Assembly: GCF_030013205.1 (NCBI RefSeq)
Contig: NZ_CP122648.1
Strand: one strand, 5' to 3'
From: Escherichia coli
Lineage (GTDB): Bacteria > Pseudomonadota > Gammaproteobacteria > Enterobacterales > Enterobacteriaceae
Length of the DNA: 64,000 nucleotides
Part shown: positions 32,155 to 62,570 of the stretch, in pieces
Position numbering within the stretch: the stretch's first letter is position 1
Layout: the number at the start of each line of letters is the position of its first letter
Program-made: the position numbers and the translations under genes
Notes under the pieces: model-generated
What the model saw: only the letters and a program-made list of their open reading frames with translations
What the model was told of the DNA's origin: nothing
Database searches by the model: none

Positions 32155-35100
32155 CTAGCTCGCCTGGGAAGGCGCTTCGTCAGTTCCTGGAAGCGTTTCA
32201 GGGAGTTGCGGCGCAAAGCCACGCAGGCCGACGACGTGTACGTGTTCGGTATTCTGGAAGACTTTACGCACCAGTTTATAGGTGGTGCCTTTCTCCGGGC
32301 TGATATTTTCCGGCGCTGCGATGATGAGCTGCATTTGCAAACGCTCACACAATTCAAACAGCGTGGCGATAGAACGAGCATCCAGTCGCGCTGCTTCATC
32401 GAGGAACAGCAGGCGGCAAGGAGAGATATCTTTACCGCGCAGGCGGCGAGATTCATCTTCCCAGCTTTGTACCACCATCACCAGAATCGACATACCGGTA
32501 CCAATCGCCTCACCGGTCGACAATGCACCAGACTCTGCGCGCAACCAGCCATCGGAACCACGGTTAACCTCAACTTCCATTTCCAGATAGTTGCGGTAAT
32601 CCAGCAGTTCTTCGCCAATGGTCTGCGGCGTGCGCTGCCCCATATCAATCTGCGGATTAAGACGCTGATACAATTTCGCCAGCGCTTCCGAGAAGGTCAG
32701 ACGGTTGCTGTTAAACAGATCCTGATGCTGCTCGTGCTGTTCAGAGAGCACATCCAGCAGCATGGCGTGCGTTTCACGTACGTTCACGTTCAGACGTACG
32801 CTGTTTACCTGACCGAACGATACGTTCTGCAAGCCCTGGTTGAGCATACGGATACGGTTTTGCTCGCGCTGAATGGTTTTGCGAATAATGTTCGCCACGC
32901 TGCGGGAACTGATCGCCAGTTTCTGTTCGCGGGAGGTTAACTCTTCGGTCAGACGGCTAAGTTCGATCTCCATCTGTTCGATAGCTTCCACCGGATCATC
33001 GGTACGAATAATATCCTGACGAATACGTTCACGCAGATGCTGATAAACCGCCACGAAGAACTGAATTTTACGTTCCGGACGTTTTGGATCTTCCGACATG
33101 CGCAGCACATCGCGCAGATGTTCGTTATCTGCCACTGCCAGACGCAGCGCACCTAACGCCTTATCCGACATGGAACGCAAATCATCAGCGGAGAGATAAG
33201 CCAGCTCACGACGGTGTAAGCGGCGCTCAACGCCGTTATCTTTCACCATGCGCATGACTGCACACCAGCCCGCTTTCGCGGTCACTACCTGCTCGCGCAT
33301 CTCAAAGTAATCCCGCTCCAGCTTGCGCAGTTTGCGGGTCAGGTTGTCCATCTCTGCTTCGCAGAAGGTAAGCGCTTTTTCCAGTTGATTGCGGCGTGAA
33401 CGGTTATTGCTCAGTTGCGCGTGCAGCTCGTCACGGCGAATACGCGCCCGCTCTTCTGCCCCGCTATCAGCTCGCACGCCGATATCCTGCAATTCACGTT
33501 GCAGATCATTGAGTAGCTCTTTTTTGGTGTCGTAAGAACTTTTCAGCGAAGCCAGCACCTGGTTGTACTGACTCAACTGCGCTGCGTGTCCGCGCAACGC
33601 TTCACGCGCGCGGGTACGCTCCGCTTCCGCCTGTTCCAGACGTTCACGCAGTTTTTCGTTGAGATCGCTGTTACCGCTAAGCATTTCTGCCGAGTCAGAG
33701 TAGCTAAAGTGCGCACGACGCTGCACCACTTCCGTCAGGGCAAACGCCTGCTGACGGGCATCGCGCTGCATCTGCTGAGAGTACGCGTAATCTTCTTTTA
33801 ACTGTTCGAACTGTTCCGGGTCACTCTGCAATACCGAAACGATCGGTTCCAGTTTCGCCAGTTGATTACCGAACTGCTGAACAAAACGCGCGGCTTCCTG
33901 GGCTTCATCCAGACGTTCGCGGATTTCATCGACGCGATCTGCCAGGCTGTCATCAGCCAACAGGTTGAGACGCGGCAGAATGCGGTTCAGCGCCGTAACG
34001 CCCACTTTCGCCTGCTCAAATTGAATACGCTGCTGCTGGTTATCATTTTCATGATTACTCAGCGCCCGCTCCAGTTCGACGCGACGGCTGTTCAGTTGAC
34101 GGATTTCTGCTTCCGGGTTAGACTCAAACGCCACCGCCAGATGACTACCGATAAAGCGGCTGAACGCCTGATGCAGACGCTGGGTTTTCTGTACATCAAA
34201 GGAGAGCGTGGCGAAGCGTTCGGAAAGCACTTCACGCTCGACATGGAGGCTTTCAATACGGCTTTCACGCGCAGCACGACCAAACAGCGGCACTTCCGGG
34301 AAACGTGAATAACGCCACTGACGATCGGCGATTTTCACCACCACCGCTTTTTCCAGCTCATCAACGCTGAACACGCTGTCATCGAATGACTGCGGATCCC
34401 CTTCGATCAGATAGAGATCTTCCGGGCAATCGGTCAAGCCTTCCAGGTGTTCGGTTACCTGTGACAGATCTGGCACCACGATGGCGTGGCGTGACGGGCC
34501 ATACAGCGCCGAGAAGTACGGCGCATCTTCCAGGCTAACGTCGTCATAAATTTCTGACAGCAGCACGCCGCCAAAACGCTCCGCCAGCGCATTCAAACGC
34601 TGGTCTTCAGAACCACCTGGCTGGCTTAAACGTTCGATCTCTTCATCGACGGCGTTTTTGCGCGCGCCTACTTCATCGCGTTCAACAATCGCCTCGCGCT
34701 CACGCTCCAGCAACTGTTGCAGATATTCGGTGACGTCCTGGCTGGAGGAGAACTCTTCGCCGCACTGTTCGCTCAACTGGTTGAGACTGTTTTGCGCAGC
34801 CAGCCAAACCGGCGCACGCTGCATCAAACTCTGAATGCGAGACTGCAGCTGTTCCTGCTCCTGACGCAGTGCCATACGCTCTTCGCGGGCGTTAGACACG
34901 CTATCGGAAAGAGAGGCAATGCGCGCTTCCAGCTCCTGATGCAGAGCTTCCAGTTCATCAATATCAAAATTCTTGCCCTGACGTTTGCAGAAATCTGCCA
35001 GCAGGCGTTCGGCTTCTTGCTGCTCGCGCAGACGCTGTTCCAGTTCGCTTAAGCGCATCCGCAACGGTTGAACCTGCTCTGCCAGGTGACGCTGATCGAC

Positions 35101-56889: not shown

Positions 56890-57018
56890 TTTTATGCTCT
56901 TATCGTGGTTTATCCACTAAAAGCATAGTCAACAGTTCATCGGCATGGCGGCGGTGATAGCGCCTTTGAGATAAAACCCGTATTATTGCGCGCTTTCCGT
57001 ACGACTAAAGTGATTTTC

Positions 57019-58779
57019 ATGACGCAAACATTTATCCCCGGCAAAGATGCCGCACTGGAAGATTCCATCGCTCGCTTCCAGCAAAAACTTTCAGACCTCG
57101 GCTTTCAGATTGAAGAGGCCTCCTGGCTGAATCCGGTGCCTAACGTCTGGTCTGTACATATTCGCGACAAAGAGTGCGCACTGTGTTTTACCAACGGTAA
57201 AGGCGCAACCAAAAAAGCGGCGCTGGCTTCTGCACTCGGTGAATATTTCGAGCGTCTCTCAACCAACTACTTTTTTGCTGATTTCTGGCTGGGCGAAACC
57301 ATCGCCAACGGTCCGTTCGTGCATTATCCCAACGAAAAATGGTTCCCACTGAGCGAAAATGACGATGTGCCAGAAGGGCTGCTCGATGACCGTCTGCGCG
57401 CATTTTACGATCCGGAGAATGAACTGACCGGCAGTATGCTGATTGACCTGCAATCCGGTAACGAAGATCGTGGTATTTGCGGTCTGCCGTTTACGCGCCA
57501 GTCCGACAATCAGATCGTTTATATTCCGATGAATATCATTGGTAATCTGTACGTTTCTAACGGTATGTCCGCTGGCAATACCCGAAACGAAGCACGCGTT
57601 CAGGGGTTGTCCGAAGTTTTCGAACGCTACGTGAAAAACCGCATTATTGCTGAAAGCATCAGCTTGCCGGAAATCCCGGCAGACGTGCTGGCGCGTTACC
57701 CTGCGGTGGTTGAAGCCATCGAAACGCTGGAAGCAGAAGGTTTCCCGATCTTCGCATATGATGGTTCCCTTGGCGGCCAGTATCCGGTGATTTGCGTGGT
57801 TCTGTTTAATCCTGCTAACGGCACCTGCTTTGCCTCTTTCGGTGCACATCCTGATTTTGGCGTAGCACTGGAACGTACCGTGACCGAGCTGCTGCAAGGT
57901 CGTGGCCTGAAAGATTTGGATGTGTTTACTCCGCCAACCTTCGATGATGAAGAAGTTGCTGAACATACCAACCTCGAAACGCACTTTATCGATTCCAGCG
58001 GTTTAATCTCCTGGGACCTGTTCAAGCTGGATGCCGATTATCCGTTTGTGGACTGGAATTTCTCCGGCACTACGGAAGAAGAGTTTGCTACGCTGATGGC
58101 TATCTTCAGCAAAGAAGATAAAGAAGTTTATATTGCCGATTACGAGCATCTGGGCGTTTATGCTTGCCGAATTATCGTGCCTGGCATGTCCGATATTTAT
58201 CCGGCTGAAGATCTGTGGCTGGCGAATAACAGTATGGGCAGCCATTTACGTGAAACGATTCTTTCGTTACCAGGCAGCGAGTGGGAAAAAGAAGATTACC
58301 TGAACCTTATCGAGCAACTGGATGAAGAAGGTTTTGATGACTTTACTCGCGTGCGTGAGCTGTTGGGTCTGGCGACCGGGTCGGATAACGGTTGGTACAC
58401 CCTGCGTATCGGTGAATTAAAAGCCATGCTGGCGCTGGCTGGTGGCGATCTGGAACAGGCTCTGGTCTGGACCGAATGGACGATGGAGTTTAACTCATCA
58501 GTATTTAGTCCGGAACGCGCCAACTATTATCGCTGCCTGCAAACGTTGTTATTACTGGCGCAGGAAGAAGATCGCCAGCCGCTGCAATATTTGAATGCGT
58601 TTGTTCGCATGTACGGCGCAGATGCCGTGGAAGCCGCCAGTGCGGCAATGAGCGGCGAAGCGGCGTTTTATGGCTTGCAACCAGTAGATAGCGATCTGCA
58701 CGCGTTTGCTGCACATCAGTCGTTGTTGAAGGCCTACGAAAAGCTGCAGCGCGCCAAAGCAGCATTCTGGGCAAAATAA
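57019..58779 (+). CDS. ycaO: YcaO-family protein (ribosomal protein S12 methylthiolation accessory factor)
   Basis: ORF track 56986..58779 trimmed to ATG at 57019 (MTQTFIPGKDAALEDSIARFQQKLSDLGF...); 586 aa; matches E. coli YcaO. Confidence 0.93.
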   Translation: MTQTFIPGKDAALEDSIARFQQKLSDLGFQIEEASWLNPVPNVWSVHIRDKECALCFTNGKGATKKAALASALGEYFERLSTNYFFADFWLGETIANGPFVHYPNEKWFPLSENDDVPEGLLDDRLRAFYDPENELTGSMLIDLQSGNEDRGICGLPFTRQSDNQIVYIPMNIIGNLYVSNGMSAGNTRNEARVQGLSEVFERYVKNRIIAESISLPEIPADVLARYPAVVEAIETLEAEGFPIFAYDGSLGGQYPVICVVLFNPANGTCFASFGAHPDFGVALERTVTELLQGRGLKDLDVFTPPTFDDEEVAEHTNLETHFIDSSGLISWDLFKLDADYPFVDWNFSGTTEEEFATLMAIFSKEDKEVYIADYEHLGVYACRIIVPGMSDIYPAEDLWLANNSMGSHLRETILSLPGSEWEKEDYLNLIEQLDEEGFDDFTRVRELLGLATGSDNGWYTLRIGELKAMLALAGGDLEQALVWTEWTMEFNSSVFSPERANYYRCLQTLLLLAQEEDRQPLQYLNAFVRMYGADAVEAASAAMSGEAAFYGLQPVDSDLHAFAAHQSLLKAYEKLQRAKAAFWAK

Positions 58780-59110
58780 AATCAAATAGCCTACGCAATG
58801 TAGGCTTAATGATTCGTCTGAGTTATATTACGGGGCGTTTTTTTAATGCCCCGCTTTACATATATTTGCATTAATAAAATAATTGTAATTATAAAGTTAA
58901 ATATCGGTAATTTGTATTTAATAAATACGATCGATATTGTTACTTTATTCGCCTGGTGCTCCCTTTTAATTAACTGTTTTAGCGGAGGATGCGGAAAAAA
59001 TTCAACTCATTTGTTAATTTTTAAAATTTATTTTTATTTGGATAATCAAATATTTACTCCGTATTTGCATAAAAACCATGCGAGTTACGGGCCTATAAGC
59101 CAGGCGAGAT

Positions 59111-59124
59111 ATGATCTATATCAA
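59111..59124 (+). promoter_or_regulatory. FNR-box-like site (aTGAT-CTAT-ATCAA) in the focA-pflB promoter region
   Basis: Near-consensus TTGAT-N4-ATCAA (9/10) about 60-75 bp upstream of focA GTG, with TAGTAT/TATAAT -10-like hexamers downstream; consistent with the FNR-dependent focA-pfl promoters; embedded in a 400-bp AT-rich regulatory region. Confidence 0.45.
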
Positions 59125-59184
59125 TTTCTCATCTATAATGCTTTGTTAGTATCTCGTCGCCGACTTAATAAAGAGAGAGTTAGT

Positions 59185-60042
59185 GTGAAAGCTGACAACC
59201 CTTTTGATCTTTTACTTCCTGCAGCAATGGCCAAAGTGGCCGAAGAGGCAGGTGTCTATAAAGCAACGAAACATCCGCTTAAGACTTTCTATCTGGCGAT
59301 TACCGCCGGTGTTTTCATCTCAATCGCATTCGTCTTCTATATCACAGCAACCACTGGCACAGGCACAATGCCCTTCGGCATGGCAAAACTGGTTGGCGGC
59401 ATTTGCTTCTCTCTGGGGCTGATTCTTTGTGTTGTCTGCGGAGCCGATCTCTTTACTTCCACAGTGTTGATTGTTGTTGCTAAGGCGAGTGGGCGCATCA
59501 CCTGGGGTCAGTTGGCGAAAAACTGGCTAAATGTCTATTTTGGCAACCTGGTCGGCGCACTGCTGTTTGTACTTTTAATGTGGCTTTCCGGCGAGTATAT
59601 GACCGCAAATGGTCAATGGGGACTAAACGTCCTACAAACCGCCGACCACAAAGTGCATCATACTTTTATTGAGGCCGTCTGTCTTGGTATCCTGGCAAAC
59701 CTGATGGTATGTCTGGCAGTATGGATGAGTTATTCTGGCCGCAGCCTGATGGACAAAGCGTTCATTATGGTGCTGCCGGTCGCGATGTTTGTTGCCAGCG
59801 GTTTTGAGCACAGTATCGCAAACATGTTTATGATCCCGATGGGTATTGTAATCCGCGACTTCGCATCTCCGGAATTCTGGACCGCTGTCGGTTCTGCACC
59901 GGAAAATTTTTCTCACCTGACCGTGATGAACTTCATCACTGATAACCTGATTCCGGTTACGATCGGTAATATTATCGGCGGTGGTTTGTTGGTTGGGTTG
60001 ACATACTGGGTCATTTATCTGCGTGAAAACGATCACCATTAA
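59185..60042 (+). CDS. focA: Formate channel FocA
   Basis: Track ORF 58846..60042 (398 aa) is an in-frame upstream extension through the AT-rich promoter; real start taken as GTG at 59185 after a GAGAGAG RBS-like stretch, giving 285 aa (V/MKADNPFDLLLPAAMAKVAEEAGVYKATKHPLKTFYLAITAGV...) matching E. coli FocA. Confidence 0.9.
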   Translation: MKADNPFDLLLPAAMAKVAEEAGVYKATKHPLKTFYLAITAGVFISIAFVFYITATTGTGTMPFGMAKLVGGICFSLGLILCVVCGADLFTSTVLIVVAKASGRITWGQLAKNWLNVYFGNLVGALLFVLLMWLSGEYMTANGQWGLNVLQTADHKVHHTFIEAVCLGILANLMVCLAVWMSYSGRSLMDKAFIMVLPVAMFVASGFEHSIANMFMIPMGIVIRDFASPEFWTAVGSAPENFSHLTVMNFITDNLIPVTIGNIIGGGLLVGLTYWVIYLRENDHH

Positions 60043-62447: not shown

Positions 62448-62570
62448 AGCACGAGAGCCTTTTTTGTCAGCTATCTATACTTTAAGGTGACTGCCAAAAC
62501 AGACTCGACGTAGCCTTCGAGCTGCGCACCAACACGGCCTCAGATGGGCCACATCTGGAGAAACACCGCA

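Follow-up and report, generated by a model that had tools for sequence, protein, structure and literature searches.

The best-described relative of the locus considered here is the focA-pflB (pfl operon) promoter-regulatory region of Escherichia coli K-12, a multi-promoter system under FNR, ArcA, IHF and NarL control that Sawers and co-workers described; further known systems share individual elements with it. Class II FNR promoters, among them those of dmsA, narG and yfiD, carry a TTGAT-N4-ATCAA-type box. The focA box agrees with this consensus at 9 of the 10 specified positions, is centred ~40.5-41.5 bp upstream of its probable start, where it takes the place of a -35 element, and binds FNR in vivo according to published data. 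It differs from that class in being overlapped by a perfect TATAAT, which could drive a second, FNR-independent start, and in its location within the leader transcribed from another promoter, which lies 321 bp upstream. Standby sites for the 30S subunit, such as that of tisB and the uRBS class of a recent 30S-seq preprint (bioRxiv 10.1101/2025.04.04.647229), combine a strong SD-like motif far upstream, 30S binding free of initiator tRNA and a downstream boost, all of which are shared by focA (published); the focA motif differs in its distance of ~200 nt to the start codon, one of the largest on record, and in being absent from transcripts of the proximal promoter. Genes with overlapping GUGUG or AUGUG starts (PMC9841429, where focA is included among the gtGTG-starting genes) share with focA a pair of overlapping start codons, here the GTGs at 59183 and 59185. 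The focA case is nevertheless distinct, since the GTG at 59183 is out of frame and a TGA comes immediately after it, and thus no overlapping product can result.

We compared these systems with a 64,000-nucleotide stretch of E. coli DNA (contig NZ_CP122648.1; hereafter the window), in which ycaO, focA, pflB and pflA follow one another on the plus strand (Table 1). An earlier, sequence-only reading of this DNA had described an AT-rich ycaO-focA spacer of about 400 bp, and its coordinates proved exact: the spacer (A126 T153 G66 C60) has 31% G+C, with sliding values of 0.30-0.32 against ~0.50 in either flank and a fall that occurs within 100 bp. Alignment with the K-12 focA upstream region, which that reading had proposed as a check, revealed 3 differences from MG1655 in 405 bp. 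The FNR 14-mer is identical in the two strains, all nine NarL heptamers are present here, and the four-repeat ArcA site differs at 58895 only; no functional change has been demonstrated for any of the three SNPs, and we treat them as sequence differences. Of 5426 complete E. coli genomes, 5425 contain a 601-bp region spanning the spacer (58700-59300), which is nearly always single-copy and in many of them 100% identical to the window. The locus is therefore the same as the K-12 focA-pflB control region. Both this region and the GTG start of focA were already known and nothing found here is new in kind, such that a classic anaerobic control region of E. coli carries little weight as a discovery. 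It does provide a worked example of DNA that doubles as a promoter array and as the leader of a translated gene with a ribosome standby site. Beyond the sequence-only reading, the analysis adds the SNP that causes a long upstream ORF, a conserved standby SD (published, in preprint form) and a layout in which a promoter appears to lie inside a terminator.

Table 1. Features of the ycaO-focA region, in window coordinates; sequence differences are given as window/K-12
Feature	Position	Strand	Basis and details
ycaO stop TAA	58777-58779	+	ORF list and PGAP annotation
ycaO-focA spacer	58780-59184		405 bp, from the base after the ycaO TAA to the base before the focA GTG
Inverted repeat AGCCTAC-N5-GTAGGCT	58788..58806	+	local fold; 3' arm holds -35-like TAGGCT 58801-58806
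Spacer SNPs	58815 C/A; 58895 A/G; 58956 G/A		in the distal promoter spacer; in an ArcA repeat; in-frame TGA lost
Distal focA promoter	58824..58837	+	-10 TATATT 58824-58829; start G 58837 (EcoCyc TSS)
Predicted ycaO intrinsic-terminator hairpin CGGGGCGUU / AAUGCCCCG	58831..58853	+	fold and 68-species covariation
Nine NarL heptamers	58869, 58885, 58902, 58920, 58929, 59003, 59054, 59118, 59135 (span 58869..59141)	.	PMC2718512 Table 3
ArcA site, four direct repeats	58873..58926	+	sequence of Park et al. 2013 supplement; same bar SNP 58895
TGG here, TGA in K-12	58954..58956	+	SNP 58956; open stretch 76 codons (K-12) to 121
Conserved block TCCCTTTTAATTAACTGTTT (TTTTAATTAAC)	58960..58979	.	76-species alignment; ArcA-like, 3-4 mismatches
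Upstream ribosome-binding site	58972..59005 (3' bound approximate)	+	upstream SD GGAGG 58984-58988; 30S standby, not a start
Conserved A/T tract, then IHF consensus AATCAAATATTTA	59001..59056 (IHF 59044-59056)	+	consensus scan
FNR binding site ATGATCTATATCAA	59111..59124	.	ChIP-seq (Myers et al. 2013) and conservation
Proximal promoter	59134..59159	+	TATAAT 59134-59139 (perfect), TAGTAT 59147-59152; putative start ~59158-59159
focA translation initiation region	59173..59187	+	weak SD GAGAGAG 59173-59179; overlapping GUGUG
focA CDS	59185..60042	+	285 aa plus stop; PGAP and K-12 annotation

Conservation was assessed in 79 enterobacterial species fetched via the FocA protein, 76 of which entered the spacer alignment. 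Mean identity of the spacer to the window across these 76 species was 0.69, compared with 0.55 at the third codon positions of focA and ycaO. This excess over synonymous positions argues that the non-coding spacer is under purifying selection, and the final 80 nt ahead of the focA GTG are 93-96% identical. Taking all of the evidence below together, we hold it very probable that 58780-59184 is the E. coli ycaO-focA control region at the level of DNA and a long distal leader with a standby SD at the level of RNA, that FocA is made from GTG 59185, and that the upstream ORF is non-coding. As DNA, the region confers oxygen- and nitrate-responsive control on the focA-pflB operon. The sequence-only reading had treated the spacer as DNA control sequence; this stands, but it captures one of two roles, as the spacer also serves as a long 5' leader in which an upstream SD is functional (published, in preprint form).

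Translation of focA, which encodes the formate channel, starts at GTG 59185-59187, where the sequence-only reading had placed it; the GUG start was reportedly first established by Suppmann and Sawers in 1994. The codon is followed by AAA GCT GAC AAC (K A D N), and it is the focA start in 79 of 79 species, within the invariant AGAGAGAGTTAGTGTGAAA. PGAP and the curated K-12 annotation both begin focA there, and a RefSeq genome identical to the window over 58700-59300 has its PGAP focA at the equivalent of 59185-60042. Solved FocA structures, among them PDB 3KCU (285 aa; 100% identity over residues 1-285), and positions 1-285 of the NCBIfam FocA equivalog all correspond to residues 114-398 of the longer ORF that opens upstream. 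The start also agrees with the flat codon periodicity ahead of it (see below) and with published toeprinting, since 30S binding and the toeprint at the focA start region depend on initiator tRNA (bioRxiv 10.1101/2025.04.04.647229). The SD of focA itself pairs with the anti-SD at just -4.5 kcal/mol, and mutation of this weak SD abolished focA-lacZ expression in the same preprint. FocA would thus be translated from what looks like a deliberately weak site, in which GAGAGAG serves as SD ahead of the overlapping GUGUG.

The FNR-like box noted in the sequence-only reading was found to be a genuine binding site. The motif by itself does not exceed chance expectation, as the 64-kb window holds 2 sites of at most one mismatch where 2.64 would be expected, and we take the box as real on the grounds of its conservation and of published ChIP, not of its motif score. 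Of the 79 species, 76 retain the half-sites ATGAT-N4-ATCAA (positions -74 to -76 relative to the GTG) and vary only in the N4. Myers et al. 2013 report the identical 14-mer (as the reverse complement, 14.4 bits) beneath an FNR ChIP-seq peak and within a few bp of it, place FNR at -40.5 from the transcription start, and give a focA expression of 0.145-fold in the comparison listed; their coordinates follow an older K-12 sequence, for which we used an offset of ~+776 set by matching the ArcA site sequence. A scan of the spacer for a second FNR box that might serve the distal promoter returned none within 2 mismatches, and the candidates with 3 mismatches were poorly conserved or badly placed.

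Downstream of the box, the TATAAT and TAGTAT hexamers are each invariant in 79 species, and a published sigma-70 ChIP peak converts to ~59180. With the box centred at 59117.5, the geometry suggests that the FNR-dependent start falls at ~59158-59159 with TAGTAT as its -10, and the proximal promoter would then be a class II FNR-activated one. The invariant TATAAT could drive a second start ~13 nt upstream. We take the proximal promoter to be Sawers' P6, and an overlapping "P6A" is said to have been described by Kaiser and Sawers in 1997.

A second promoter lies at the far end of the spacer. The most distal focA start in EcoCyc (954814, as quoted in the 30S-seq table) converts to window position 58837, which gives a leader of 348 nt, and a published anaerobic sigma-70 ChIP peak converts to ~58843. 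A -35-like TAGGCT is located 17 bp upstream of the TATATT, and GTAGGC occurs 17-18 nt upstream of it in 67-68 of 76 species; this conserved TAGGCT/GTAGGC probably acts as a promoter element. The TATATT itself is conserved in 68 of 76 species, with a G+C-rich hairpin directly after it and then a T-run (TTTTTTT). This distal promoter is, we presume, Sawers' promoter 7 (P7).

The hairpin that follows the distal -10 has the makeup of an intrinsic terminator for ycaO, namely a G+C-rich stem and a U-run just 3' of the ycaO stop. Its inner stem covaries among 68 species (GCGC/GCGC, CAAT/ATTG, CCAA/TTGG and GGAGC/GCTCC), with stems of -12 to -20 kcal/mol, and the 81 nt of 58780-58860, which hold three hairpins including the terminator, fold at -30.1 kcal/mol (z = -5.7). 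E. coli itself has a degenerate U-run (CUUUACAUAUAUUU) behind the hairpin, which suggests that the terminator may be leaky in this species, and a simple terminator scan made no call. The distal start sits within the 5' arm of the hairpin, and distal transcripts should for this reason be unable to form it. One and the same hairpin would stop transcripts arriving from ycaO yet be skipped by those that begin at the distal focA promoter. Judged from the alignment, this promoter-inside-terminator layout is conserved in 68 of 76 species, and it had not been part of the sequence-only reading.

Downstream of the distal promoter lie sites for several further regulators. The core of the ArcA site (58884-58899) has a conservation of 0.83, and the block at 58960-58979, which is very strongly conserved and resembles an ArcA site, may have a related function. 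Nine database-annotated NarL heptamers are given for focA in PMC2718512 (Table 3); each has a single match in the spacer on its stated strand, and AATAAAT also occurs as its reverse complement at 59026. The IHF consensus WATCAANNNNTTR has one exact match in the spacer, against 0.1 expected, and the A/T tract and IHF region show a conservation of 0.78-0.79. The ArcA and NarL sites are located downstream of the distal start, an arrangement that is unusual for activation. Multi-promoter control by FNR, ArcA and IHF, as the sequence-only reading had expected it, is borne out by the FNR ChIP motif, the ArcA site of Park et al., the exact IHF consensus and the two sigma-70 peaks, which are consistent with at least two promoters. 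The several -10-like hexamers to which that reading had also pointed are indeed present, with 17 within one mismatch of TATAAT on both strands, but they are uninformative, as simulations of the same composition yield 22.5 +/- 6.2 and the spacer is not enriched. Likewise, a simple promoter scan called 1 site in comparison with 2.2 expected.

Transcripts from the distal promoter carry the upstream ribosome-binding site. In the 30S-seq preprint (bioRxiv 10.1101/2025.04.04.647229), a 30S footprint was recorded in vivo with its 5' end at focA -213 (window 58972); it was reproduced by toeprinting without initiator tRNA, it requires the strong upstream SD, and mutation of this SD lowered focA-lacZ expression ~10-fold. 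We scored pairing with the anti-SD of 16S rRNA along the 400 nt ahead of focA in 76 species. The GGAGG of the upstream SD was the strongest site in the window's 400 nt (-9.5 kcal/mol), and across the 76 species the strongest site was found at -204 to -202 (mean -7.6 kcal/mol). Pairing of -6 kcal/mol or stronger occurred at -212 to -192 in 62 of 76 species, compared with at most 7 of 76 for any other 21-nt window. The position of the upstream SD is fixed while its flanks are free to vary; the Klebsiella/Raoultella and Kluyvera lineages do not have the motif. The supplements of Adams 2021 contain no mention of focA.

As in other standby sites, this strong SD-like motif lies in the leader with no start codon at a working distance. 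The ATG at 58989 next to it has a spacing of 0-1 nt, is ATT in another E. coli and is absent elsewhere, and a conserved uORF at the upstream SD was rejected because this ATG is not conserved. An adjacent ATG that is both poorly spaced and unconserved fits a non-initiating standby site. The GGAGG in the distal leader would accordingly hold a 30S subunit without initiation and boost initiation ~200 nt downstream. The sequence-only reading had named translation initiating upstream of 59185 as the finding that would overturn its start codon; the upstream 30S binding on record involves neither initiator tRNA nor a usable start codon, and the start at 59185 stands.

The mechanical ORF track nonetheless places focA in an ORF of 398 aa (58846..60042) that exceeds the gene by 113 codons, and we considered whether strains with G at 58956 translate it from ATG 58846 into a 398-aa FocA, or at least let in-frame ribosomes pass through the leader. 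Upstream of the gene, the focA frame runs on for 121 codons as far as a TGA at 58819, with no stop in 58822-59184, whereas the other two frames of the spacer hold 12 and 13 stops, and in dinucleotide shuffles of the spacer a stretch of at least 113 open codons arose in 0.025% of cases (at least 76 codons in 0.27%). ATG 58846 is 9 nt from the distal start and thus close to the 5' end of the distal transcript. The far-leader 70S signal in the 30S-seq table (bioRxiv 10.1101/2025.04.04.647229) is small but non-zero, at 3.0 against 28 in the ORF, and some ribosome assembly upstream of the focA start may take place. The full 113 codons are reached only because of the G at 58956, where the A of K-12 completes an in-frame TGA, and 497 of 5419 E. 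coli records (~9%) are identical to the window over the surrounding 61 nt (58936-58996), the other ~91% differing by at least one base. ATG 58846 has no SD and is not conserved, and the upstream ORF is entirely missing from proximal transcripts. In the species sample, the open stretch upstream of the focA GTG ranges from 4 to 86 codons, with close in-frame stops in several genera, among them Mangrovibacter and Kluyvera (4-5 codons) and Klebsiella (12 codons); the extension is devoid of any possible start codon in 21 species, and every species apart from E. coli carries between 1 and 14 in-frame stops (1-14) within the 360 nt ahead of focA. The three codon positions differ in conservation in focA (0.918/0.974/0.554) and in ycaO (0.85/0.96/0.55), whereas the extension is flat (0.718/0.708/0.704). 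A coding role thus failed on both codon-periodic conservation and an open frame in relatives (76-79 species), and the 113-aa peptide, composed of AT-rich, low-complexity codons, matched no NCBIfam family. Selection for an open focA frame was also considered and rejected: in-frame stops are mildly depleted, with a mean of 6.2 per 360 nt versus 10.6 and 8.0 in the other frames, but despite this depletion there is no conserved open frame, as stops occur in every other species. Given the strain SNP and these stops, the long ORF is a lineage-specific accident that is not conserved; its 113 upstream codons are non-coding, and translation of the extension in 58956-G strains is extremely unlikely. The sequence-only reading was correct that the ORF over-extends for want of in-frame stops, but this is not simply a property of the region, being improbable for its composition and dependent in this strain on one SNP. 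The ORF track over-extends genes where an AT-rich leader happens to be free of in-frame stops, and it takes no more than one strain SNP, here TGA to TGG at 58954-58956, to lengthen such an artefact by 37 codons.

The conservation of the spacer might instead stem from a small protein that has escaped annotation, or from a small or structured RNA, which we consider very unlikely. The whole leader folds somewhat better than shuffled sequences (z = -2.6), several ORFs of 21-33 aa are present, and a conserved CUCC ~20 nt upstream of the conserved GGAGG could pair with it. However, none of the spacer's small ORFs (20 aa or longer) is conserved; they sit in poorly conserved segments or overlap known sites, and the ATG by the upstream SD, as described above, is itself unconserved. 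An Rfam search of the spacer at permissive E-values gave noise, with a best score of 17 bits against thresholds of 52-60 and unrelated families at E-values of 0.27-0.56. A hairpin between the CUCC (58959-58962) and the upstream SD was rejected, because RNAalifold found no consensus pairs around the upstream SD and covariation of the CUCC:GGAG helix was no better than in shuffles (177/500). The conserved blocks coincide, moreover, with protein-binding sites and promoter elements. The drop in G+C from ~0.50 to ~0.30 within 100 bp, together with the ease with which IS elements insert here in experimental evolution, could also be taken to mark degenerate DNA or DNA of foreign origin, for instance what is left of an insertion or an island silenced by H-NS. 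The conservation data already contradict this view, whose probability is negligible: across 76 species from many genera the spacer keeps its synteny and can be aligned, and it is conserved above synonymous sites, is near-universal among the complete E. coli genomes and contains ChIP-verified FNR and ArcA sites.

The control region has documented fitness relevance, as selection in the mouse gut favours IS insertions within it. When E. coli evolves in this environment, IS1 and IS5 repeatedly insert upstream of focA, raising the anaerobic focA transcript with selection coefficients of 0.05-0.08, and four independent adaptive insertions were located at -212, -203, -201 and -174 from the focA start (PMC5094792). 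These positions correspond to window 58970-59011, a 42-bp segment that brackets the upstream SD. Their clustering may stem from a preferred target, from rewiring of the promoter or from loss of the standby leader. A more specific proposal, which we regard as unlikely, is that the benefit arises at least in part from breaking the distal leader at the 30S standby site, which would uncouple distal transcription and the ArcA and NarL sites from focA translation. If true, the leader and its upstream SD would form a tunable brake or accelerator on formate-channel dosage that is under selection in the gut. As for target preference, the two IS5 sites fit the YTAR target of IS5, with TTAA at 58970-58973 and TTAG at 58979-58982.

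The distal focA promoter overlaps the ycaO terminator, with its start point falling within the 5' arm of the terminator hairpin. A TATATT −10 element directly adjoining a covarying hairpin and T-run is conserved in 68 of the 76 species compared; in E. coli, the U-run 3' of the hairpin is degenerate. Downstream, a mouse-gut evolution study recovered four independent adaptive IS1/IS5 insertions at −212, −203, −201, and −174 relative to the focA start (PMC5094792), all of which fall within 42 bp surrounding the upstream SD, GGAGG, reported in a preprint as a 30S standby site in the long focA leader.

Leader elements differed between lineages. The Klebsiella/Raoultella group (loci L016–L020, L026, and L035) and Kluyvera (L033, L039, L040, L048, and L050) are without a strong upstream SD, and the TATATT distal −10 is also absent from the Klebsiella group. 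The terminator hairpin, FNR box, and invariant start region are nevertheless retained in the Klebsiella group. The long-leader mechanism may thus be lineage-restricted.

The published ArcA site contains a strain SNP in its strongest direct repeat: the window carries A where K-12 has G, and both bases mismatch the ArcA consensus at that position. Only one other FNR-like box with at most one mismatch was detected in the 64-kb window (TTCATCAATATCAA). The mechanical ORF calls that extended focA upstream of its GTG also lengthened its neighbours ycaO and pflA, the latter gaining MGHIWRNTA ahead of its usual N-terminal sequence.

Coordinates of features in the window
Feature	Position	Detail
Other FNR-like box	34954-34967	
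ycaO extension	56986-57018	ORF-track start TTG 56986; PGAP start 57019 (MTQTFIPG...)
Promoter–terminator layout	58824-58853	focA start point 58837
ArcA-site SNP	58895	
IS1/IS5 insertions	58970-59011	
Upstream SD	58984-58988	
pflA extension	62544-62570	ORF-track start 62544

In the E. coli genome collection, one genome has 21 separate places matching part of 58700-59300, and five matching places are plasmid-borne. In strain hubt-sl (NZ_CP104206.1), the match is limited to the first 106 bases, and the remaining region is therefore missing or displaced. An enterobacterial ycaO-focA locus, whose FocA is 91% identical to that of E. coli, is also present on a contig titled "Chryseobacterium sp. 18061" (L052; CACSKA010000002.1), an assembly that is probably mislabelled or contaminated.
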